DNA from: Lentimicrobiaceae bacterium
GTDB lineage: Bacteria > Bacteroidota > Bacteroidia > Bacteroidales > F082
DNA length: 64,000 nucleotides
Assembly: GCA_015061335.1 (NCBI GenBank)
Contig: SUWT01000007.1
Coordinates: forward strand, 897-64,896
Direction: 5' to 3'
The position numbers and the translations under genes are program-made. Positions 3,004 to 61,057 of this stretch are shown here, one piece after another; position 1 is the stretch's first letter, and the number at the start of each line of letters is the position of its first letter. Below the pieces are notes generated by a model. The model saw nothing but the letters and a program-made list of their open reading frames with translations, did not search any database and had not been told where the DNA came from.

Positions 3004-3681
3004 ATGAAAAAAGTACTGTTATTATTCGCTGCGCTTTTCGTGGCAACAATCGCTAATGCGCAATTTGACATCTGTGTAGGTCCTAAAGTAGGTTACCAAG
3101 CAACAAAATTATCTTTAGATAAGCAAAGCATCAAATCGAGTTTCAAAGGCAATATGACATTCGGTGTTTTCGGTCGTGTGACCATCAAGAAATTTATCGT
3201 CCAGCCTGAGCTTTTATATTTCAAATCTGGTAAAGTCTTTGAAGTCAGTGTGTTAGGAGATAATTTTGGCATCGATAATCCGGCTTTAAATCCAACATTC
3301 ACTATCAACCAAGCTAATTTGGCTCTTCCTATTTTTCTAGGATATCAATTCCTTGATTTAGATTTGATTAAGATGAGAGCCAATGTTGGTCCTGTGTTTT
3401 ATTTTGCTGTAGGTGGAACGGAATATGTCTATCCGAGTCCTATAGGTAATGGAACGAGTTATGTAACAAATAACACTTCTCCTAATGAAGAAATGACGTT
3501 AGGTGCAGCTCTTAACCTTGGTGTTGATGTGTGGCGCTTTACTTTGGATATCAACTATAGCTTAGGTTTGACAGATGCTTTCGACGATGAGATTGAGATA
3601 CCTGGAGTTGGAGAGTTTGAGGTTGATGACGATACAAAACAAAATATCTTTACAGTAACATTAGGATTTAAACTTCTATAA
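3004..3681 (+). CDS. small outer-membrane beta-barrel protein
   Basis: 225 aa with signal peptide MKKVLLLFAALFVATIANAQ. Beta-strand periodicity and a C-terminal ..VTLGFKLL. Confidence 0.6.
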   Translation: MKKVLLLFAALFVATIANAQFDICVGPKVGYQATKLSLDKQSIKSSFKGNMTFGVFGRVTIKKFIVQPELLYFKSGKVFEVSVLGDNFGIDNPALNPTFTINQANLALPIFLGYQFLDLDLIKMRANVGPVFYFAVGGTEYVYPSPIGNGTSYVTNNTSPNEEMTLGAALNLGVDVWRFTLDINYSLGLTDAFDDEIEIPGVGEFEVDDDTKQNIFTVTLGFKLL

Positions 3682-3708
3682 TAGTCATAAAGACATAAAG
3701 TCTAAAGG

Positions 3709-3768
3709 ACGCAAAGTGGTGGAGTGATAAATCTTAAAATATGATTCTCTGCAACTTTGCGTTTTTTT
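3709..3768 (+). terminator. hairpin (ACGCAAAGT / ACTTTGCGT) followed by a T7 run
   Basis: 9-bp perfect stem (3709-3717 / 3754-3762) around a long 36-nt loop, then TTTTTTT. It lies 28 nt after the stop at 3681. Confidence 0.5.
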
Positions 3769-3780
3769 GTATAAAACTCT

Positions 3781-3812
3781 GCGACCTTGCGACCTTGCGA
3801 CCTTGTGACTCT
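3781..3812. repeat. octamer tandem array (GCGACCTT)x3 plus one degenerate unit
   Basis: The sequence reads GCGACCTT GCGACCTT GCGACCTT GTGACTCT directly. Confidence 0.9.
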
Positions 3813-3826
3813 AAAACTTAAAATAA

Positions 3827-5107
3827 ATGAATATAGATAACACCCTTTTCATAAATAACAGGAAGAACTTCGCTGAGAAGATGGCGAAAAATTCAATGGC
3901 TGTTTTCTGTGCCAACGAAGAGATGCCTCGTAATGGCGACCAGTTTTATCCATATCGCCAGCAGTCGGATTTCTTCTATCTCACAGGCATCGACCGCGAC
4001 TGCGCATACCTTATTATATACCCTGACCATCCGAATCCGGAGATGCGCGAGATTCTCTTCGTGGAACCTTATAGCGAATCGAAAGTGATTTGGCGCGGCG
4101 AGATGATTGACGCTAAAGAAGCCGCTGAAATATCAGGAGCCGCCAAGGTGATGTATAGCGACAAATTCAACTCGACACTTCAAGACCTCGCCCTTTCTTG
4201 CGAGACGATCTATCTCAACACTTACGAATATCCTCGTTATGAGTGTCCAGTCGTGACAATACAACAACGTTTCATCGATGAGATAAAAGCGAAATTCCCT
4301 CTGCATAAATTTGAACGCTCGGCACCTATATTAAATAAGCTCCGCATGGTTAAGTCGCAAGAGGAAATCGAAGTCACGAAACAAGCCTGTGACATCACGG
4401 CAGAAGCATTCCGTCGTTGCCTTAAAACAGTGAAACCGGAACGTTACGAATATCAGATACAAGCAGAGATAGAATACATATTCAAATATAACGGTGCAAA
4501 CGGTAATGCCTATCACCCGATAGTTGCTGCCGGTAAGAACGCCTGCTGTCTGCATTATTCGGCAAACAATAAAATTTTAAAAGACGGCGACCTAATTCTC
4601 TTCGACATAGGCTGCGAATTGAAGAACTATTCTTCTGACCTAAGCCGCACCATTCCTATCAACGGAAAATTCACTCAGAGACAGAAAGATTGTTATAACG
4701 CAGTCCTTCGTGTGATGAAAGAAATCACGAAGCTCTATAAACCGGGCGGAACCATCGACGAGATAAACAGGACGACATATAAGTTGATGGAAGAAGAGAT
4801 GATAAAACTCGGACTCTTCACTGCGGAAGATGTCGTTAATCAAGACCCGGATTTTCCATTGTATAGAAAATATCTCATGCACGGCATGGCGCATCATATC
4901 GGATTAGATGTTCACGACAGCGTTGATAAGTTCGAACCTTTCAAGCCGGGCATGATTCTCACCTGCGAGCCGGGAATCTACATCAGAGAAGAAGGCATCG
5001 GAATCAGGATCGAGAACGATTTGCTCATCACAGAAGGTGAACCGATAAACCTCTTTGAAGGACTTCCGATTGAGGTGGAGGAAATTGAGGGGTTAATGAG
5101 GAATTAG
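3827..5107 (+). CDS. Xaa-Pro aminopeptidase, M24B family (paralog 1)
   Basis: 426 aa. AMP_N-like N-terminus (YPYRQQSDFFYLTG) and M24 motifs DIGCE..SDLSRT, HGMAHHIGLDVHD, EPGIY, IRIEND. Confidence 0.85.
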   Translation: MNIDNTLFINNRKNFAEKMAKNSMAVFCANEEMPRNGDQFYPYRQQSDFFYLTGIDRDCAYLIIYPDHPNPEMREILFVEPYSESKVIWRGEMIDAKEAAEISGAAKVMYSDKFNSTLQDLALSCETIYLNTYEYPRYECPVVTIQQRFIDEIKAKFPLHKFERSAPILNKLRMVKSQEEIEVTKQACDITAEAFRRCLKTVKPERYEYQIQAEIEYIFKYNGANGNAYHPIVAAGKNACCLHYSANNKILKDGDLILFDIGCELKNYSSDLSRTIPINGKFTQRQKDCYNAVLRVMKEITKLYKPGGTIDEINRTTYKLMEEEMIKLGLFTAEDVVNQDPDFPLYRKYLMHGMAHHIGLDVHDSVDKFEPFKPGMILTCEPGIYIREEGIGIRIENDLLITEGEPINLFEGLPIEVEEIEGLMRN

Positions 5108-5251
5108 GAATTAGGAATTAGGAATTAGGAATGAGGAATGAGGAATGAGGAATGAGGAATTGTTGTAGAGACGCGTTAATGTAACCTGCAAAATAAAAAT
5201 ACATTGACACGTCTCAAATAATGAACAATTAACAATTGACAATTAATTATT
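5099..5251 (+). repeat. composite intergenic element, copy 1: (AGGAATT/AGGAATG)x9 - GTAGAGACG hairpin core - (AACAATT/GACAATT)x4
   Basis: Heptamer array at 5099-5161 (4x AGGAATT, 4x AGGAATG, 1x AGGAATT) contains the TAG stop of the upstream gene (5105-5107). Core arms are GAGACGCGTTAATGT (5168-5182) and ACATTGACACGTCTC (5201-5215), separated by an 18-nt loop. Second array at 5224-5251. Confidence 0.9.
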
Positions 5252-15963: not shown

Positions 15964-17031
15964 ATGAGACGCTTCATACAATTATCATCCATTTTAATAA
16001 TCTTAATATTTTTAGGAGGGTGTACATCAAATGCACTATATGATGATGTGTCCGACATCTCGGAAAAGAATATCGGCATACTTCATTCTAATGTTGAGAA
16101 GGATGTTATGAACGTTCTCTTTCCTCATGCCTCGGTTATGGAATATGACAAAGTGATTTCACTATTTCTTGATATGGAATCTAATCGTTGTGATGTTGCG
16201 GTGATGACGCAAGAAATCGCCGATATGGTTGTAAAACGTAATCAGGATTATGTGTTGCTTGGTTCTGTTGCAACGCCAGATGGCGAGGATTTTTTTGTTG
16301 TCGTACCACGTGAAAATATTGCGGTTGGCGAGGATATTTCAATCAAAGAGATATCTTTTTTCGAGAAGATAAAAGGCAGCCTTAGTCGTAACTTATTTAA
16401 TGAAAAGGCGATGCATCTGATATGGGGCGGTTTCAAGACTACCGTCATCATATTCTTCTTCGGCGCCATTTTAGCTATAATATTAGGTGCGTTCTTGGCG
16501 TATCTATCTATAAGTCATAAATGTCTTTGGCTATATAAACCTCTCAGTTGGTTTGTGATGACGATTCACGACATTCCGTCTGTCGTGCTGATGATGTTTT
16601 TCTTCTATGTCGTTTTTGCCGGAGCGATGAACGGAATATTCGTCTCAATAATAGCTCTCGGCATATATGCCTCTGGAGCGTTATATAAAGTATTTAAGAT
16701 ACATATCACGCAAGTCGGGAAAGGACAACTTGAGGCTGGACGTATGTTAGGGCTCAGCTCCTATAAATGTTATCGTTACATCATACTGCCTCAGGCTGTC
16801 AAGACGATGTTGCCTTTGGTGGGAGGCGAACTTAAGCTTTTGTTGAGAGCAACTTCCTACGCAGGTTACATAGCTCAGAAAGATCTGGTAAAAGCCGTCG
16901 ATGCCATAAGAGGATTCACCTACGATGCTTTCGTGCCTTTGTTGTTAGTATCGCTACTATATCTCCTCTTGTCATGGCTTATAGTGAAATCATTAGATTA
17001 TATATCAAAAAAAGTATTTAACAATGATTGA
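15964..17031 (+). CDS. ABC permease (polar amino acid HisM/GlnP-type TMD) with N-terminal lipoprotein signal and partial SBP_bac_3-like domain
   Basis: Starts MRRFIQLSSILIILIFLGGCTSN. About 130 aa are periplasmic-binding-like (CDVAVMTQEIADMVVKRNQDYVLLG). The TMD has an EAA-type loop GQLEAGRMLGLSSYKCYRYIILPQA. The TTG start at 15928 lies inside the terminator. Confidence 0.7.
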   Translation: MRRFIQLSSILIILIFLGGCTSNALYDDVSDISEKNIGILHSNVEKDVMNVLFPHASVMEYDKVISLFLDMESNRCDVAVMTQEIADMVVKRNQDYVLLGSVATPDGEDFFVVVPRENIAVGEDISIKEISFFEKIKGSLSRNLFNEKAMHLIWGGFKTTVIIFFFGAILAIILGAFLAYLSISHKCLWLYKPLSWFVMTIHDIPSVVLMMFFFYVVFAGAMNGIFVSIIALGIYASGALYKVFKIHITQVGKGQLEAGRMLGLSSYKCYRYIILPQAVKTMLPLVGGELKLLLRATSYAGYIAQKDLVKAVDAIRGFTYDAFVPLLLVSLLYLLLSWLIVKSLDYISKKVFNND

Positions 17032-18094
17032 ATTCTTACATATCAGTAAATCGTTTCAGGGTAAGGAGATTCTTCATGATGTGTCGTTGTCTGTCGAGGA
17101 AGGTCAGACGGTATGTATCATAGGAGCGTCAGGATGTGGTAAGACGACATTGTTACGTTGCATCGCAGGATTGGAAAGCAATCATCGCAGTCAGCTGTCG
17201 GCTGTCAGCTGTCAGCTAAAAGCTAAAATCGGTATGGTGTTCCAGAAATTCAATCTTTTTGAGAATATGAATGTATTGGATAATCTCACTTTTGCTCCTA
17301 TCCATGTTTTGAATATGAAGAAGGAAGATGCCGAACGTCTTGCGATGGAACATCTTAAGATGGTCGGCATGTCGGAGAGAGTCGCATATTATCCGAATCA
17401 GCTTTCGTCAGGACAGCAGCAGCGTGTCGCCATAGCACGATGTTTAGTGATGAAACCGGAGCTTCTGCTTCTCGACGAGCCGCTGTCATCTCTCGACCCT
17501 ATATCTCGCAGCGAGGTGATGGATGTCTTGCGTATAATAAAGAAAGATATAACAATGATAATGGTGTCGCACGACCTCGATGCCGTTGCTGAACTTGCAG
17601 ATCGCGTCATCTTTGTCAATAACGGCTCGATATGTGAAGAGGGAAAACCTGAGCAAATCTTGTCGTTACCTTTAAAAGAAGAGACACGGCATTTTATCAA
17701 CAGCCGGAAAAACCTTTTCTATACGATAAAGTCACATGACTTCGACCGTCCTGAACTTAATGCGCGTATCGAACACTATTGTAATAGATTCGGATTAGGC
17801 GGACAAGCGCATAGATTCGTACAGTTGGCAGTAGAAGAATCGCTTAATATCATACCTTTAGATAATAAAGTGGAACTCGTTTTGTCGAAGAAAAATGACG
17901 AGGTGAGAATGTCGTTGGATCTTACTTTTGATGATACAGGACATGATTGTCTTAATGAAGAAAATGTGTCGGAAGAGAATTTCTTAAGCCTCAATATCCT
18001 TCAAGGCTTATGCGATATAATAGAAGAGAAAGTAGAAAAAGATATGCGTCATATTCATCTTGAATTGAATCAAGAGAGACTGTTGTTGAGGTGA
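17024..18094 (+). CDS. ABC transporter ATP-binding protein with shortened beta-subdomain and C-terminal RsbW/GHKL-like (degenerate) domain
   Basis: Walker A GASGCGKT, Q-loop IGMVFQKF, signature LSSGQQQRV, Walker B LLLLDEP, H-loop VSHD. Only 17 aa lie between ..GLE and IGMVFQ, and they are encoded by a heptamer array. The C-terminal ~130 aa align to the kinase domain of the 19061 gene. Confidence 0.75.
   Translation: MIEFLHISKSFQGKEILHDVSLSVEEGQTVCIIGASGCGKTTLLRCIAGLESNHRSQLSAVSCQLKAKIGMVFQKFNLFENMNVLDNLTFAPIHVLNMKKEDAERLAMEHLKMVGMSERVAYYPNQLSSGQQQRVAIARCLVMKPELLLLDEPLSSLDPISRSEVMDVLRIIKKDITMIMVSHDLDAVAELADRVIFVNNGSICEEGKPEQILSLPLKEETRHFINSRKNLFYTIKSHDFDRPELNARIEHYCNRFGLGGQAHRFVQLAVEESLNIIPLDNKVELVLSKKNDEVRMSLDLTFDDTGHDCLNEENVSEENFLSLNILQGLCDIIEEKVEKDMRHIHLELNQERLLLR
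17192..17226 (+). repeat. intragenic heptamer array CAGCTGT CGGCTGT CAGCTGT CAGCTAA AAGCTAA
   Basis: Read directly from the sequence. It encodes ..QLSAVSCQLKAK.. inside the ATPase gene. The same unit family occurs at 22615-22677, 34395-34428 and 39438-39465. Confidence 0.9.
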
Positions 18095-18126
18095 TTGATA
18101 GTTGACAATTGACAATTAACAATTAA
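18093..18126 (+). repeat. heptamer array (GACAATT/AACAATT family) filling the intra-operon spacer
   Basis: TGATTGATAGTT GACAATT GACAATT AACAATT. It starts inside the TGA stop (18092-18094) and ends 2 nt before the ATG at 18129. Confidence 0.85.
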
Positions 18127-21717: not shown

Positions 21718-21883
21718 CGGGAACGGGGATTGCGGGGACGGGATTTAGTAGAGACACACGGACGTGTATCTTAAATTGAAAATTCAGGTAGAGACGCGTC
21801 AATGACACCTTAAAAAAATAAACAAGATGTCATTGACACGTCTCAACTTATTCCCCGTTCCCCGCTCCCCGTTCCCCGCTCCC
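21716..21883 (+). repeat. composite intergenic element, copy 2: inverted CCCCGTT-type arrays bracketing a truncated and a full GTAGAGACG hairpin core
   Basis: Left array (AACGGGG-type) at 21716-21746. Mini core GTAGAGACACACG-GA-CGTGTATCT at 21748-21771. Full core arms GAGACGCGTCAATGACA (21791-21807) and TGTCATTGACACGTCTC (21828-21844). Right array TTCCCCG TTCCCCG CTCCCCG TTCCCCG CTCCC at 21851-21883. Confidence 0.9.
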
Positions 21884-22761: not shown

Positions 22762-24483
22762 ATGTTAAGCGAACAAGAACAAATAAGAAGAAACTCCTTA
22801 AACGAGTTATACAAATTAGGTATCAATCCTTATCCACAGGCAGCTTTTGAAGTCAATGTCAACACTGCTCAGATTGCTGAAGAATTTGATGACAACGACT
22901 TGACAAAATTCGAGAACGTAAGCATAGGCGGTCGTATCATGAGCCGTCGTATCATGGGCGCAGCTTCGTTCTGCGAACTTCAAGATGCTCACGGTCGCGT
23001 ACAGATCTATATCAAACGTGACGAGATCTGTCCTGGCGAGGATAAGACTTTATATAACGTGGCTTTCAAACGTCTCTTAGACATCGGCGACTTCATCGGC
23101 GTTAAAGGTTTCGTCTTCCGCACACAAGCCGGCGAGGTGTCAATCCACGTAAAAGAATTGACAGTGCTCAGCAAGTCATTGCGTCCGCTTCCAATAGTGA
23201 AAGAGAAAGACGGCGTTGTCTATGACGCTTTCACAGATCCTGAACAACGCTATCGTATGCGTTACGTCGATTTGGTGGTTAACGAAAACGTGAAGAACAT
23301 CTTCATCGCTCGTACCAAAATCATCAACTCGATGCGTAACTTCTTCAACGAAAACGGATACTTAGAAGTAGAGACTCCGATATTACAATCTATCCCTGGC
23401 GGCGCTACAGCACGTCCTTTCATCACTCACCACAACGCTCTCGACATCCCGATGTATATGCGTATCGCTAACGAGCTTTACCTTAAACGTCTCATCGTAG
23501 GTGGTTTCGACGGAGTTTATGAGTTTTCACGTAACTTCCGTAACGAAGGTATGGACCGCACTCATAACCCAGAGTTCACATGTATGGAAATTTACGTCGC
23601 TTATAAAGACTACATCTGGATGATGGACTTCACAGAAAGAATGATAGAACGCGTCGTGACAGAAGTGTTCGGCACTGATACAGTGAAAGTCGGCGACAAT
23701 GAAATATGCTTCAAACGTCCTTTCAAACGTATCTCCATGATCGACTCTATCAAGGAAAAGACAGGCGTTGACATCACTGGCATGGACGAAGCTCAACTTC
23801 GTGAAGTATGTAAAAACCTCGATATTGAAATCGACGACACTATGGGTAAAGGCAAGTTGATTGACGAGATCTTCGGAGCAAAATGCGAAGGCACTTATAT
23901 CCAACCAACTTTCATCACCGACTATCCTGTCGAGATGTCGCCATTATGTAAACGTCACCGCGAGAATCCGGAACTCACAGAACGTTTCGAGTTGATGGTC
24001 AACGGCAAAGAACTCGCTAACGCATATACAGAGTTGAACGACCCTATCGACCAACGTGCTCGTTTCGAGGAACAGATGAAACTCTCGGAACGTGGCGACA
24101 ACGAAGCTATGTTCATCGACCAAGACTTCTTACGTGCTATGGAATATGGTATGCCTCCAACATCAGGTATGGGTATCGGCATCGACCGTCTCGTGATGTT
24201 GCTCACTGGTCAGCTCGCAATACAGGAAGTTCTTTTCTTCCCGACAATGCGTCCTGAAAAAGTCAAGAAAATAGCTACAGAACAAGACTTCATGGCAATC
24301 GGCGTCCCAGAGGTGTGGGCTGGCGTTTTGGTAAAAGCAGGTTATACTTCCATCGATATGATGAAGTCGGAGAAACCTGCTGCTCTCCGTGAGAAACTGA
24401 ACGGACTTCGTAAGAAAAACAAAATGGATGTCCCGGCTCTTCAGTTGGAGGAAGTGACACAATGGATTGAAGGTAACGAATAA
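22762..24483 (+). CDS. lysS: lysine--tRNA ligase (class II) with C-terminal extension
   Basis: 573 aa. OB-fold N-domain and class II motifs ([25 protein letters not shown]). About 70 extra aa at the C-terminus. Confidence 0.9.
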
Positions 24484-24556
24484 TTCATAATGCATAATTC
24501 ATAATTTGTAGAGACGTGTCAATGTGTTTTAATTGCATGATACATTGACGCGTTTC
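24481..24556 (+). repeat. composite intergenic element, copy 3: (TAATTCA/TAATGCA)x4 - GTAGAGACG hairpin core
   Basis: The array TAATTCA TAATGCA TAATTCA TAATTTG (24481-24508) begins with the lysS TAA stop. Core arms are GAGACGTGTCAATGT (24511-24525) and ACATTGACGCGTTTC (24542-24556), with a 16-nt loop. Confidence 0.9.
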
Positions 24557-29169: not shown

Positions 29170-30792
29170 ATGAAAAGTATTACAAAGATAGCACTGGCAT
29201 TGTTAAGTGGTTTGTTGATTGCCTTTTCATGGCCGACATACGGTTTTACTCCTTTGATTTTCATAGCATTTGTTCCTTTGTTGTTTTTACAGGATCGTAT
29301 TGGAGATAAAAATAATAACGAGAAGGGAAGTGTATTCTGGCTTTCTTTCCTGACTTTCTTGGTATGGAATAGTATCACAACATGGTGGGTGTGGAATAGT
29401 ACTGCTGCAGGTGCGGTTGCTATGTTACTGCTAAATAGTGTTTTTATGGCTACAATATTTTGGCTCTATCATTTTACCAGAAAACACATCTTCTTCAATA
29501 AAAATGGTTTCTTCTTGTTGATATTTTTCTTTTTAGCTTTTGAATATCTTCATTATAACTGGCAGCTTAATTGGCCCTGGCTCTCATTGGGAAATGTATT
29601 TTCCAGTACACATAGCTGGATACAATGGTATGAGTTTACAGGTGTTGCGGGAGGAACAATATGGGTACTACTTTCAAATATCTTGGTGTATAAGGTTATC
29701 ATAGGACTTAAGACAAAAGACAAAAGACAAACGATTCTGTTAATGATATCACTTTTGGCATTACTTTTTATTCCATTAATAATAAGTAAGATAATGTATA
29801 ATACGTACGATACTCGTAAAGACTCTGATGTTGCTGAATCTAATGAGGTTGAAGTCGTTGTTGTTCAGCCAAATATAGATCCATATAATGAAGAGTTTTC
29901 TCTAACACCCGCAGAGATCCTATGGAGAAACTTTTCTCTTGCAGATACTTGTATCACTGACAAGACCCGTTTCGTAATAAGTCCAGAATCTTCTATACAT
30001 GAGAATATTTGGTTAGATAAGTTTGATAAATATTATTCAATTAAGAAGATAAGAGAATTCTCAGGAAAACATAATAACATAGCATATATCATAGGAGCCA
30101 GTACTTTCGGAATGGTGCCTGAAGGAGATGAAGATGATTTTGCTGCGCGAAAGTTCTATGATGCTGATGAGTATTATTATGCTTATAATACTGCCTTGAT
30201 GATCAGTGATAGTGCTGATATTCAGTATCATCAGAAATCAAGGCTTACTCCTGGAGTAGAGATGATGCCTTCATGGTGGTTTTTGCGACCAATACGTAAT
30301 TATGCTATTGATCTTGGGGGTATAGTAGGTACTCTTAAAAGAGAGAATGAGCCCACTGTTTTATCATTTGATGATTATAATATAGCTACTCTTATATGTT
30401 ATGAATCTGTTTTTGGCGACTATGTAACTCAATTTGCTAGAGAAGGAGCTAATCTGTTTTTCGTTATCACCAATGATGGCTGGTGGGGAGATACGGAGGG
30501 ACATAGACAACATCTTGAACTTTCCAAATTACGTGCTATTGAGAACCGACGCAGTATCGCTCGCTCGGCTAACACAGGTATCTCTGCGATTATCAATGAA
30601 AGAGGTGATATTGTAGAACAGACATCTTATTGGGAACCTGATGCTATATGCAGTAATATCACGGTAAATGACGAACTTACTTTCTATTCAAAACATGGAG
30701 ATTATCTCTATAGAGTAGCTACATTCCTCGCTATAATTACTTTATGTTTTAGTATTGTTTTATGTATTATGAACAAAAAATGGTACAATTAA
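29170..30792 (+). CDS. lnt: apolipoprotein N-acyltransferase
   Basis: 540 aa. N-terminal polytopic membrane domain plus a C-terminal CN-hydrolase domain (VVQPNIDPY, LICYESVF, TNDGWW). The ATG immediately follows the holB stop. Confidence 0.85.
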   Translation: MKSITKIALALLSGLLIAFSWPTYGFTPLIFIAFVPLLFLQDRIGDKNNNEKGSVFWLSFLTFLVWNSITTWWVWNSTAAGAVAMLLLNSVFMATIFWLYHFTRKHIFFNKNGFFLLIFFFLAFEYLHYNWQLNWPWLSLGNVFSSTHSWIQWYEFTGVAGGTIWVLLSNILVYKVIIGLKTKDKRQTILLMISLLALLFIPLIISKIMYNTYDTRKDSDVAESNEVEVVVVQPNIDPYNEEFSLTPAEILWRNFSLADTCITDKTRFVISPESSIHENIWLDKFDKYYSIKKIREFSGKHNNIAYIIGASTFGMVPEGDEDDFAARKFYDADEYYYAYNTALMISDSADIQYHQKSRLTPGVEMMPSWWFLRPIRNYAIDLGGIVGTLKRENEPTVLSFDDYNIATLICYESVFGDYVTQFAREGANLFFVITNDGWWGDTEGHRQHLELSKLRAIENRRSIARSANTGISAIINERGDIVEQTSYWEPDAICSNITVNDELTFYSKHGDYLYRVATFLAIITLCFSIVLCIMNKKWYN

Positions 30793-31733
30793 GTTTAGCA
30801 CCTTTTCAAGGGATCACCGATTCTGTTTATCGTAATTTATATCAGAATTATTTTTCTGGGATAGATAAATTTTATACCCCTTTCTTCACGGGAATTCATA
30901 AGGATAATAGTAGAAGTTTAAAGGGAGAAGAGATTGACATAAGCTGTAATGATGTCAATATTTTAACACCGCAGATACTTGGTAATGACGCAGATGAAAT
31001 TATTAGATTTGCAAATCAATGTCAGTCAATGGGTTATAAGGAGATAAATCTTAATATGGGATGTCCTTTCCCAAGAGTTGCCAATAAGGTGAGAGGTTGT
31101 GGTCTTATGGCTGAGCCTCAGAGGGTTAGAGAGATATTCGACAAGGTGTTTAATAATATCACAATAAAATTTAGTCTCAAATGCCGTCTTGGATATTTTA
31201 GAGATACTGAAATAAATGAATTAATAGAGAGTTTTAATACTTATCCGTTTAGCGAGATTATTATTCATCCTAGGATTGGTAAACAATTATATACAGGATG
31301 TGCCGATGTCGATAGATTTGCCGAAGTAGCAGCTCAAATCAAACGTCCGTTGGTTTATAATGGAGATATCTTTTCTGTTGGCGATTTCCAAAAGATTAGC
31401 GCTAAATTGCCACAGGTATCAATGTTTATGTTGGGAAGAGGTATTCTCACAAATCCTTTCCTGGCAGATGAGATAAAAGGATATATCGTGAAAGATGATG
31501 AGAAAATAGAGATACTTCATCGATTTGTAGTATCTCTATATCTCGAAAGATTACGTCATGCAGGAGGAAGCCCTAAAATTATAGGCTGTATGAAAGAATT
31601 GTGGTCATATCTGATGAATTCGTTTGAAGATCCTCAGAATATATGGCGTAAAATCAAGAAGATAAATAACTTGGATGTTTATGAAGAAACGGTAGAACGT
31701 ATCTTCAGAGATGAGAAACTTAAAGTTAATTAG
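30780..31733 (+). CDS. tRNA-dihydrouridine synthase family protein
   Basis: Starts LAPFQGITD. Contains NLNMGCP (catalytic Cys context) and a TIM-barrel pattern. The start is either 30762 or 30780; both overlap the lnt 3' end. Confidence 0.7.
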   Translation: MVQLSLAPFQGITDSVYRNLYQNYFSGIDKFYTPFFTGIHKDNSRSLKGEEIDISCNDVNILTPQILGNDADEIIRFANQCQSMGYKEINLNMGCPFPRVANKVRGCGLMAEPQRVREIFDKVFNNITIKFSLKCRLGYFRDTEINELIESFNTYPFSEIIIHPRIGKQLYTGCADVDRFAEVAAQIKRPLVYNGDIFSVGDFQKISAKLPQVSMFMLGRGILTNPFLADEIKGYIVKDDEKIEILHRFVVSLYLERLRHAGGSPKIIGCMKELWSYLMNSFEDPQNIWRKIKKINNLDVYEETVERIFRDEKLKVN

Positions 31734-31831
31734 GAATTAGGAATTAGGAATTAGGAATTATTGTAGAGACGTGTCAATTACACCGATGAAAATGATAATA
31801 TGTAATTGATGCGTCTGATTAATTAGGAATT
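31732..31831 (+). repeat. composite intergenic element, copy 4: (AGGAATT)x4 - GTAGAGACG hairpin core - AGGAATT
   Basis: The array at 31732-31759 overlaps the TAG stop (31731-31733). Core arms are GAGACGTGTCAATTACA (31766-31782) and TGTAATTGATGCGTCTG (31801-31817), with an 18-nt loop. A single AGGAATT unit lies at 31825-31831. Confidence 0.9.
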
Positions 31832-31841
31832 TATAATTATT

Positions 31842-32897
31842 ATGAAAAAGATTCTTGTAATTCGGTTTAGTTCTATAGGTGATATTGTTTTGACAACGCC
31901 TGTGATCCGTTGCTTGAAGAATCAACTTCAGGAGGCAGAGATTCATGTCCTGACAAAAAAGAAATTCAGCGGTCTTTATAAGACAAACCCACACATTGAT
32001 AAGGTGTATGAATTTGATTCTTCATTGAAAGACAATATTACAGAACTGAAGCTGGAGAATTACGATTATGTTGTTGATTTACAGAAGAACAAACGTAGTG
32101 TGAGAGTGACGCGAGCATTGTCATGCCCACATTCTTCATTTCCTAAACTTAATTTCAGAAAGTTTCTGCTTTCAACGTTTAAGATTAACATAATGCCTGA
32201 TATTCATATCGTTGACAGATATTTCAAAGCGGTTGAGAAATTGGGAGTTAAAAATGATTATCAAGGACTTGATTTCTTTATCTCAGAGAAAAACAATTAT
32301 AATTTAACAGAATTGCCCCAAGAATTTCATAATGGATATTATGCTTTTGTTATTGGCGGAACATATAAAACCAAAATTCTACCTGCCGTAAAAGTCGCTG
32401 AAGTCATACAAAAAATTAATAAACCTGTAGTACTTCTTGGTGGACCTGATGATGTGGAGAGAGCGGAAGAGATTCTTTCTTTAGTCAACAAGTCAACAAG
32501 TCAACAAGTCAACAAGTTGAGGGAGCAGGGAACAGGGAATAAGGAGCTTGATGATTTACAACTCTATTGCTCCAAAGTCCTTAATCTAGTCGGCAAGATA
32601 AACCTTGAGCGGTCGGCTTCTCTTGTAAAGAATGCGGAATCTGTCTTGACGAACGACACCGGTTTGATGCACATAGCGGCTGCTTTTCATAAGAATATAG
32701 TATCTGTCTGGGGAAATACCGTCCCTGAATTGGGAATGTATCCGTATCTTCCTAAAGAGCCGGAGAAATGTCATATTGTTGAATGTAAGTGTGTTAGATG
32801 TCGCCCGTGCAGCAAATTGGGATTTAAAGAATGTCCAAGGAAACATTTTAAATGTATGATGGATATTGACGTTAGGTTTATAGTTGATAGTTTATAG
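31842..32897 (+). CDS. glycosyltransferase family 9 (LPS heptosyltransferase-like) with repeat-encoded insertion
   Basis: 351 aa. GT9 pattern MKKILVIRFSSIGDIVLTTPVIRCLK ... VVLLGGPDDVERAEEI ... NDTGLMHIAAAF..VSVWGNT. Residues VNKSTSQQVNKLREQGTGNKE are encoded by tandem arrays. Confidence 0.8.
   Translation: MKKILVIRFSSIGDIVLTTPVIRCLKNQLQEAEIHVLTKKKFSGLYKTNPHIDKVYEFDSSLKDNITELKLENYDYVVDLQKNKRSVRVTRALSCPHSSFPKLNFRKFLLSTFKINIMPDIHIVDRYFKAVEKLGVKNDYQGLDFFISEKNNYNLTELPQEFHNGYYAFVIGGTYKTKILPAVKVAEVIQKINKPVVLLGGPDDVERAEEILSLVNKSTSQQVNKLREQGTGNKELDDLQLYCSKVLNLVGKINLERSASLVKNAESVLTNDTGLMHIAAAFHKNIVSVWGNTVPELGMYPYLPKEPEKCHIVECKCVRCRPCSKLGFKECPRKHFKCMMDIDVRFIVDSL
32484..32548 (+). repeat. intragenic arrays: (GTCAACAA)x4 perfect octamers, then GGGAGCA GGGAACA GGGAATA AGGAGCT heptamers
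   Basis: Four perfect 8-nt units at 32484-32515 (+GT). Heptamers at 32521-32548. Confidence 0.95.
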
Positions 32898-32933
32898 TCT
32901 AATAATTGTTGGTTCGTCGTGAGTGAAAATATT

Positions 32934-33822: not shown

Positions 33823-33895
33823 TATCGGGTAGGGGATTCGAACCCCTGTTTCGACAGTGAGAGTGTCGTTACCTGACCGACTAGTAGAACCCGAC
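33823..33895 (-). tRNA. tRNA-Glu (anticodon CUC)
   Basis: Manual cloverleaf of 73 nt. Acceptor GTCGGGT/ACCCGAT (G1-U72 wobble), D arm TACT/GGTA, anticodon stem CGACA/TGTCG with loop CTCTCAC, 4-nt variable loop, T arm AGGGG-TTCGAAT-CCCCT. No encoded CCA. Confidence 0.85.
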
Positions 33896-34466: not shown

Positions 34467-34605
34467 AAAATTGCGTTAGGGATTGAAGCGGCATCCTTGC
34501 TTCCTCTCTTTGCCAATAATTTATCTATGCCGAAGACGGCGGAAGTTGCCTATATTAATTAATAAAAGGTAATAAATGATGACTTTTGTTAGCAAGATTG
34601 TGAAA

Positions 34606-34655
34606 GTCAACAAGACAACAAGACAACAAGCTTGTTGTCCTGTTGTCTCGTTGTC
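34606..34655. repeat. 50-nt near-perfect palindrome made of (GACAACAA)x3 / (TTGTTGTC)x3, centred on AAGCTT
   Basis: 22 of 25 base pairs form, with no loop. It ends 6 nt from the rocD stop (34662-34664) and is a likely rocD terminator or stabiliser. Confidence 0.85.
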
Positions 34656-34661
34656 TTAATA

Positions 34662-38424: not shown

Positions 38425-38463
38425 AATTCCTAATTCCTAATTCCTCATTCCTAATTCCTAATT
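38425..38463 (-). repeat. (AGGAATT/AGGAATG)x5 array in purC sense orientation
   Basis: The plus strand reads AATTCCT AATTCCT AATTCCT CATTCCT AATTCCT AATT. On the minus strand the array directly follows the purC TAA stop. A single AGGAATGA unit supplies the TGA of the convergent gene (38391-38398). Confidence 0.9.
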
Positions 38464-60984: not shown

Positions 60985-61057
60985 GGTACCATAGCTCAGT
61001 TGGTAGAGCAATGGACTGAAAATCCATGTGTCGCTGGTTCGAATCCCGCTGGTACCA
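60985..61057 (+). tRNA. tRNA-Phe (anticodon GAA)
   Basis: Manual cloverleaf. Acceptor GGTACCA/TGGTACC, D arm GCTC-AGTTGGTA-GAGC, anticodon stem ATGGA/TCCAT with loop CTGAAAA, T loop TTCGAAT (one T-C mismatch in the T stem), discriminator A. No encoded CCA. Confidence 0.9.

Follow-up and report, generated by a model that had tools for sequence, protein, structure and literature searches.

We analyzed a 64,000-nt stretch of DNA (the window; contig SUWT01000007.1 of assembly GCA_015061335.1, positions 897 to 64,896) from a Lentimicrobiaceae bacterium, in which a gene for a GT9-family glycosyltransferase (31842..32897, + strand, 351 aa) contains a compact tract of 8- and 7-nt tandem repeats. An earlier reading of the letters alone (the sequence-only reading) had proposed this tract both as a phase-variation switch and as evidence that an element had been inserted into the gene. 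From its counterparts in other strains and species, we conclude that the tract is probably a translated microsatellite complex of 7–8-nt units that has grown in place by slippage and has been filtered for reading frame, rather than a maintained switch or a mobile element.

Anatomy of the repeat tract

The tract begins with four mismatch-free octamers, (GTCAACAA)x4, at 32484..32515 (+). These are followed by GTTGA and then by four degenerate heptamers, GGGAGCA GGGAACA GGGAATA AGGAGCT, at 32521..32548 (+), which encode ..EQGTGNKE... Tandem Repeats Finder (TRF) delimited the octamer part at 32483-32517 (period 8, 4.4 copies, 100% matches, score 70) and the heptamer part at 32520-32539 (period 7, 2.9 copies). 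The tract lies in frame within the open reading frame (ORF) 31842..32897 and encodes the peptide ..ERAEEILSLVNKSTSQQVNKLREQGTGNKELDDLQLYCSKVLNLVGK.. or, in a longer reading, ..GGPDDVERAEEILSLVNKSTSQQVNKLREQGTGNKELDDLQLYCSKVLNLVGKINLE..; three-phase translation of the octamers gives VNKSTSQQVNK, and the array starts on native Val-Asn codons. Direct reading, TRF and ORF translation therefore agree with the sequence-only reading that perfect octamers and heptamers are carried in frame by a GT9 gene. The junction of the two arrays, GTTGAGGGA (32516..32524, +), has a 9-nt duplication encoding an extra LRE in some strains; loci L172 and L173 have TTGAGGGAGTTGAGGGAG at this position, and their proteins (P0124 and P0130) are 354 aa long.

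It is extremely improbable that the tract stems from misassembly or is a stretch of low complexity that came about by chance. Short-read assemblers can mis-size tandem repeats, and one split gene in our sample (L174) proved to be a mere gap of Ns in a scaffold. However, the same tract, with an identical GT9 protein, is found on 12 contigs (among them JGI 3300018493 Ga0187909_10001224), loci were read from one JGI and one ENA assembly (L001 and L002), and a 32-nt array is far below read length or k=141. The chance expectation for a perfect 32-nt array of four 8-nt units in 64 kb is also of the order of ~1e-10 (~64,000 x 4^-24, or ~2e-10 by our arithmetic). An Rfam scan of the 64-kb window found no match at the repeat tract and identified two tRNAs, at 33823-33895 (-) and 60985-61057 (+), unrelated to it.

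Array hot spot in the GT9 loop

We compared the segment bounded by the anchors ..ERA and LVGKINLE, which flank the tract, in 30 species-representative genomes and the window, giving 31 alleles. In the window this hypervariable loop tract occupies 32466..32585 (+), 120 nt compared to 39 nt in basal relatives. The 39-nt basal loop (NEILAAVNDNVVS) was present in 7 of the 31 alleles, and the other 24 contained 45-198 nt of recognizable arrays. Nearly all length variation in an alignment of the 30 orthologous proteins (327-440 aa) falls at the tract site, and the loop segment of 216 full-length orthologs ranges from 14 to 122 aa, with 130 distinct peptides. The tract is thus a lineage-specific addition, growing from a 39-nt basal loop to as much as 198 nt elsewhere, as the sequence-only reading had implied.

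The loop arrays are 3-20 units long and mix families of 7 and 8 nt, with unit sequences that vary by species. The first array is always anchored on the native Val-Asn codons GTC AAC and has either 7-nt units (GTCAACA or GACAACR) or 8-nt units (GTCAACAA or GACAACGA); a second array, with units TCAGATTY, TCAGAATC or CTCAGCAA, lies ahead of the LN-LVGK strand. Insert-free relatives already have Val-Asn codons (GTAAAT or GTCAAT). In L028 and L029, the TCAGCTG arrays are seeded by TCAGCTGTC (Ser-Ala-Val), and native TCA GCT GTC (Ser-Ala-Val) has been turned into a (TCAGCTR)n array. The odd loop peptides result from translation of these units in all three phases, as in SDSQILRF, which is encoded by (TCAGATTC)3. 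The alleles show that simple sequence in the GT9 loop is born in place and turns over rapidly.

Strain-level change and retention of the reading frame

Among strains that are 0.4-0.9% diverged over 7 kb, all indels longer than 2 nt fall in repeat arrays. The majority, of 7 or 14 nt, correspond to whole units; indels of 13 and 22 nt occur in an imperfect GTTCCCC array. At the GT9 tract, a gene 99% identical to that of the window has GTCAACGA GACAACGA GACAACTA GACAACGA in place of the four GTCAACAA units. Length heterogeneity between strains, the absence of which would have spoken against the sequence-only reading, was therefore found, with at least 6.6 GACAACGA units versus 4 octamers within the window's species cluster, as well as replaced units.

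The frame was kept in 31/31 species-level alleles (length mod 3 = 0), including all 24 that bear arrays, for which the probability under a neutral frame is (1/3)^24, or ~4e-12. The genome search used N-terminal motifs that precede the tract and should therefore have recovered frameshifted GT9 alleles as well. A search with the N-terminal 212 residues found no truncated GT9 among the 120 nearest cluster representatives, all of which were 325-368 aa. Three of the 75 listed members of five 90% clusters were short, two of them explained by a contig end or a gap of Ns, so that a true frameshift affects about 1 of ~73 listed cluster members. Within clusters, length variants stay in frame and differ by 3, 5, 8, 12 or 14 aa. 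We rejected the split gene at L174 (P0132) as a frameshift, as its scaffold gap lies inside the tract; P0131 and the Logan contigs of P0187, which start at or after the tract, are probably contig ends.

Proposed origin by slippage

We infer that replication slippage seeds these arrays on short chance duplications in native sequence and that the encoded peptides are neutral. Once seeded, arrays would expand, contract and re-homogenize, and point mutations would give rise to adjoining variant arrays; because the copies are perfect, this turnover is likely to be recent. Within genes, only frame-preserving products that are free of stops in all three phases would survive, and arrays would for that reason accumulate in permissive loops and C-terminal tails. 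Slippage would also make frameshifted GT9-null cells at some elevated rate. Because purifying selection would remove such cells, ON/OFF switching would be a mutational side effect, a latent switch with no sign of maintenance for switching, and what persists would be an enzyme that is expressed constitutively and whose hypervariable loop peptide probably has no function.

Several points weigh against this account. In-place slippage alone leaves the recurrence of a few unit families at unrelated sites unexplained. One natural allele (L003, on a 48-kb contig) is one heptamer shorter, and a premature TAG splits its gene; given this allele and the difference in octamer copy number within the window's species cluster, switching does occur and could be exploited. 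Assemblies give the majority allele only, making minority OFF subpopulations invisible, and split genes are under-represented in protein databases. Finally, the structural model of the enzyme is poor, and assignment of the tract to a surface loop draws chiefly on an alignment to PDB entry 3tov and on tolerance across natural alleles.

Comparison with contingency loci

In its anatomy, the tract resembles a contingency locus, with a non-3n array (8-nt x4 plus 7-nt units) inside the ORF at 31842-32897. The Haemophilus influenzae lic2A and lgtC tetranucleotide tracts and the Neisseria lgt poly-G tracts are examples of glycosyltransferase contingency loci. Like such lipooligosaccharide/lipopolysaccharide (LOS/LPS) loci, the GT9 gene has a non-3n array in a glycosyltransferase ORF, a single slip shifts the frame, and one frameshift allele exists. 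In contrast to these loci, the tract has 4 units, lies in a mid-gene loop rather than near the 5' end, and is ON in all species-level alleles; moreover, the gene is a core ortholog, and arrays are also found in housekeeping and cytoplasmic genes and in intergenic DNA (for background on simple-sequence contingency loci, see PMC2651432 and PMC4679880).

The neuO gene of Escherichia coli K1 prophage CUS-3 carries a variable-number tandem repeat, (AAGACTC)n, of 3-53 units (PMC13001214). Both neuO and the GT9 tract have 7-nt units translated in three phases, yield protein only if the length keeps the frame, and encode a tolerated peptide. However, the neuO switch is OFF in 42/64 complete genomes (65.6%), and minority lengths were seen in one culture (PMC13001214), whereas 0/31 tract alleles are OFF, the tract families are mixed 7/8-nt, and the units differ between species. 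The tract thus lacks the population signature of neuO and of classical contingency tracts: the species-level alleles show no ON/OFF mixture, with 0/31 out of frame, and across the sample of 64 kb plus 9-kb loci the tracts are not concentrated in surface genes as opposed to housekeeping genes.

Two further comparisons bear on switching. The gene for Lnt (apolipoprotein N-acyltransferase) is broken inside an array in 2/29 related species genomes (L018 and L023). Because Lnt shows similarly rare in-array frameshifts, whether real or due to assembly error, the lone GT9 OFF allele appears to be at the background level for array-bearing genes. Among ~11 neutral intergenic arrays comparable in size to the tract array, ~3-5 differ at 0.4-0.9% divergence; as a rough estimate, array change is ~50-75x the per-site substitution rate per array, a soft figure in that assemblies show modal alleles. 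Classical contingency loci switch at rates that are orders of magnitude higher, and the switching rates of known loci drop steeply at low copy number.

We therefore regard it as unlikely that the tract is a genuine contingency locus, whose arrays are maintained since slipped-strand mispairing switches GT9 and a surface glycan ON and OFF and thereby allows subpopulations to escape phage or host factors. Perfect copies of a unit not divisible by 3 within a glycosyltransferase ORF, the natural one-unit frameshift allele (L003), intraspecies variation in copy number and unit content, and single-unit array changes between strains would all fit such a locus. These features have to be set against the absence of out-of-frame alleles (0/31 species-level alleles) and of truncations (0/120 closest N-domain relatives), the 65.6% OFF frequency of neuO (PMC13001214), an array of only 4 units, a rate of intergenic array change far below classical switching rates, the presence of identical arrays in housekeeping genes, and the status of GT9 as a conserved core Bacteroidota ortholog rather than an accessory decoration gene. 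Thus, part of the phase-variation proposal stands, namely the unit length not divisible by 3, the whole-unit changes between strains and one frameshift allele, but the ON/OFF population behavior does not.

Recurrence of unit families

Cross-matches and a unit catalogue bear out the suggestion that the tract units belong to intergenic array families. GTCAACAAGTCAACAA matches position 34606 with 1 mismatch, and its 8 matches at ≤3 mismatches compared to 1.03 expected support recurrence of the octamer (GTCAACAA/GACAACAA) at that site. The 19-nt heptamer core GGGAGCAGGGAACAGGGAA matches the minus strand of the 21851-21883 array with 2/19 mismatches (0 expected in shuffles), in accord with the sequence-only reading that the GT9 heptamers are the complement of this array. 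Overall, 188 arrays reduce to 69 canonical units, and families of the GWCAACR(A), CTCAGAWW, AATTMRK and GGGGAAC types recur at unrelated loci; GWCAACR(A) is found at ≥5 non-homologous sites. This recurrence is in part orthology and may in part reflect a stop-free constraint, and a unit preference of the generating process, or conversion between arrays, could also lie behind it.

Another explanation is that the arrays were copied in from other loci, by ectopic recombination or gene conversion between arrays or as a small 'repeat cassette' that is mobile or templated. The G[T/A]CAAC[A/G](A) units common to the GT9 loop, Lnt/Dus (three sites) and intergenic DNA, the GGGAGCR-GGGAACR 19-nt core present at both 32521 and 21851, the coverage of all 188 arrays by 69 units, and the frequent adjoining of the same two families as array pairs are what copying would produce. 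We nevertheless consider copying quite unlikely, as the arrays lack common flanks, terminal repeats and target duplications, the GT9 array starts on codons native to insert-free relatives, and many of the recurrences are orthologous positions rather than separate events. Specifically, flank comparison of 15 array sites of the same families detected no shared flanking sequence outside the arrays. The proposed insertion of an element into the gene is not borne out by these results, given that no shared flanks and no discrete element were found and that the array starts on native GTC AAC codons; judged from the sequence, the conserved ends, flanks or target-site duplication of a mobile element or miniature inverted-repeat transposable element appear to be lacking. 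A diversity-generating retroelement, an intein and programmed frameshifting were also dismissed, as variation is by whole tandem units, translation runs straight across the tract, and we saw neither genes nor signals associated with such systems.

A more speculative idea, possible although on balance improbable, is that the subclade acquired, or lost a suppressor of, a sequence-biased process that writes a few 7-8-nt unit families, some of them similar to cyanobacterial STRR units, at many loci and continuously creates translated segments in permissive loops of essential enzymes such as GT9, Lnt and an ABC ATPase. If true, this would represent bacterial microsatellite-driven birth of coding sequence, with the GT9 and Lnt loops as recurrent hot spots and low-rate null switching as a latent property.

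The GT9 enzyme and the position of the loop

The ORF at 31842..32897 matches Pfam PF01075 (Glyco_transf_9) at E=2.1e-24, and sequence and fold comparisons with the PDB both rank 3tov, 1psw and WaaC as the top matches; it thus has the GT-B fold and the PF01075 domain of the GT9 family. Against the NCBIfam heptosyltransferase equivalogs, it scored 47-100 bits and missed every cutoff (135-569 bits). By these scores, the protein would not be equivalent to the LPS-core heptosyltransferases WaaC, WaaF or WaaQ. Of its earlier description as an 'LPS-core-type GT9', the family assignment is retained, and the LPS-core part is an assumption for which the equivalog cutoffs are not reached.

Orthologs with 70-81% identity come from ruminant-gut metagenome-assembled genomes labelled Lentimicrobiaceae, Bacteroidales or 'Candidatus Limimorpha', and orthologs that are ~50% identical are scattered over Bacteroidales, Flavobacteriales and Cytophagales (48-81% for the whole Bacteroidota range). 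A scan of metagenome contigs gave one 74% match and otherwise orthologs with ≤56% identity among the matches listed, and thus no population sample of the tract. Lnt and Dus lie directly upstream of GT9 at every close-clade locus examined (order Lnt-Dus-GT9), and this single-copy Bacteroidota ortholog looks like a conserved core gene from its distribution.

The tract was originally placed in the linker before the C-terminal Rossmann domain. The alignment to 3tov and the order of secondary structure in an AlphaFold2 (AF2) model (E196-199, H202.., E246-248) instead place it inside that domain, after the strand VVLLGG and the helix DDVERAEEIL and before the strand LNLVGK. We used the AF2 model, which was built from a shallow 30-sequence alignment (mean pLDDT 59.8, pTM 0.52), for secondary-structure order and fold class. 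Structure prediction therefore agrees with a loop between C-domain helix 2 and strand 3, but the model is too poor for the geometry of a surface loop. In the phmmer alignment, 3tov has 5 residues at this position compared to 32 in the window GT9, and basal orthologs have 39 nt, in keeping with the claim that other GT9 enzymes have only a short loop there.

The repeat-encoded peptide could instead have a selected role as a length-tunable spacer or modulator of GT9, in the way that repeat number tunes NeuO activity. Frame is always preserved, inserts between the anchors reach 122 aa, and AF2 runs the flanking helix into part of the insert (pLDDT ~60-80), as might be expected of such a spacer. 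A selected role is very unlikely, however, as 7 close species and all distant orthologs manage with a short loop, the peptides (130 variants) are unrelated between species, unrelated proteins show the same phenomenon, and the model is of low confidence.

A further heptamer array in the gene (GTTTATA GTTGATA GTTTATA; 32876..32898, +), identified by TRF and its position in the ORF, forms the C-terminal tail RFIVDSL* together with the stop codon. Ortholog C-termini diverge exactly past ..MMEIDV, and the tail, too, seems to be repeat-derived. Ahead of the tail, at 32790-32870 (residues ~310-340), the protein has a Cys-rich motif, C-H-x3-C-x2-x-R-C-R-P-C-S-K-L-G-F-K-E-C-P-x-K-H-F-x-C, which is invariant across aligned orthologs of the Bacteroidota subfamily and has AF2 confidence <50. 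The motif may bind metal and is, to our knowledge, not a feature associated with WaaC or WaaF.

Arrays across the window and related genomes

TRF reported 55 rows for the window, 27 of them with period 7 or 8, corresponding to 21 non-overlapping arrays of ≥2.8 copies. Of these 27, 10 are entirely intergenic and a further 5 span the 3' end or stop codon of an ORF, on an ORF map that is crude (first start codons, likely over-extended) and assigns ~93% of the window to ORFs. Using a strict count (period 7 or 8, ≥3.5 copies, ≥85% matches; ~9 kb per genome sampled), array density was 4.36 per 10 kb in 24 close species with an expanded GT9 loop, 0.36 per 10 kb at 7 close basal-loop loci and 0.31-0.39 at 129 distant Bacteroidota loci. 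Density at the GT9 locus is thus ~12-fold higher in the insert-bearing subclade than in its basal-loop sister species or in distant Bacteroidota. Because array density follows loop expansion and Lnt also has hot spots, the GT9 insert tracks a genomic propensity rather than a property of the gene, and the tract is one instance of a genome-wide array feature.

In Lnt, in-frame 7/8-nt arrays of the same families occupy two hot spots, one around residue 50 and the other around residue 185. The window copy, which serves as a housekeeping control, contains a perfect (AAGACAA)x3.1 array at 29710..29731 (+; TRF) encoding ..KTKDKRQ..; in related loci L010-L029 (~1270-1940), units and lengths vary by species, with up to 15.5 copies. 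Heptamer arrays GTCAGCT x4 and AGCTAAA x2 at 17190..17228 (+) are in frame in the ABC_tran ATPase domain of ORF 17024-18094 (..SQLSAVSCQLKAK..), and these ABC ATPase arrays (..ESNHRSQLSAVSCQLKAKIGMVFQ..) are placed between the Walker A and Q-loop regions. A CTGACCA array is in frame in the C-terminal tail of PhoH.

Intergenic arrays include members of both GT9 tract families. Paired octamer arrays in opposite orientation (AAGTCAACAAGACAACAAGACAACAAG / GTTGTCCTGTTGTCTCGTTGTCT; 34604..34656), of the same GACAACAA family as the GT9 octamers, lie between two convergent genes, for an HSDR_N protein and an aminotransferase. As RNA, this segment has a predicted fold of -27.7 kcal/mol (z=-6.06), and this strong predicted hairpin may be a repeat-built terminator that works in both directions. 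A TTCCCCG/CTCCCCG heptamer array found by TRF at 21851..21883 (-) has the GT9 heptamer family as its reverse complement.

Relation to known repeat systems

The arrays have the hallmarks of long simple sequence repeats (LSSRs) and of short tandemly repeated repetitive (STRR) sequences, being numerous, short (7 nt, here also 8 nt) and mostly intergenic, with unit families that recur at many loci and a sporadic, lineage-specific distribution. In both cases, inverted arrays can form hairpins (for STRR hairpins, see PMC2670836). They differ in occurring in an uncultured ruminant-gut Lentimicrobiaceae host, in having mixed 7-/8-nt families with no single dominant unit, and in that non-3n units are repeatedly found in frame in the same permissive loops of housekeeping ORFs. 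A 2007 LSSR survey, as summarized in PMC4679880, found that coding regions tolerate mainly units of 3n length. We found no published description of such arrays in Limimorpha or Lentimicrobiaceae; the Limimorpha papers were microbiome surveys, whose full texts were not searched for 'repeat'. The unit of (GTCAACA)n is a rotation of the cyanobacterial STRR3 unit CAACAGT. The GT9 arrays are of known LSSR/microsatellite type and are translated at a recurrent loop hot spot.

Seen as a candidate for phase variation, the locus gives an ordinary or negative result, and for annotators it carries the lesson that a non-3n tandem repeat in a glycosyltransferase does not by itself prove phase variation. As a series for repeat-driven loop evolution, and as a way into the cause of heptamer arrays, it is of moderate interest. 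If the slippage reading holds, the locus would show how rampant 7-8-nt slippage reshapes proteins rather than providing another pathogen-style glycan switch. Dozens of unrelated repeat-encoded peptides, all in frame, occupy one enzyme loop across sister species, and they constitute a natural series for measuring the birth, turnover and decay of arrays, selection against frameshifts, and the tolerance of a loop for random sequence. The cause of prokaryotic heptamer and octamer arrays has been in question since the cyanobacterial STRRs were described, and the sharp contrast between array-rich and array-poor sister species makes it testable by comparative genomics.

Additional arrays

Arrays seem to favor the 3' ends of genes. 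A perfect AATTAGG x4.7 array between Dus and GT9 (31728..31760, +) differs by one unit between strains, and its first unit gives the TAG stop codon of Dus. Arrays at or near stop codons were also observed at 5095-5160, 18094-18124, 24480-24506 and 38425-38463, and some supply the stop; an M24 peptidase gene, for instance, overlaps at its end with an AATGAGG/AATTAGG x9.4 array. Long heptamer arrays of other units occur at some distant Bacteroidota loci, L040 (uncultured Bacteroidales binchicken_co115_320; 3057-5060) and L085 (830), with units GGTCATT x10.3, GGCTTGT x7.4 and CAGGAGT x12. The phylum may therefore have given rise to array-rich lineages on more than one occasion.

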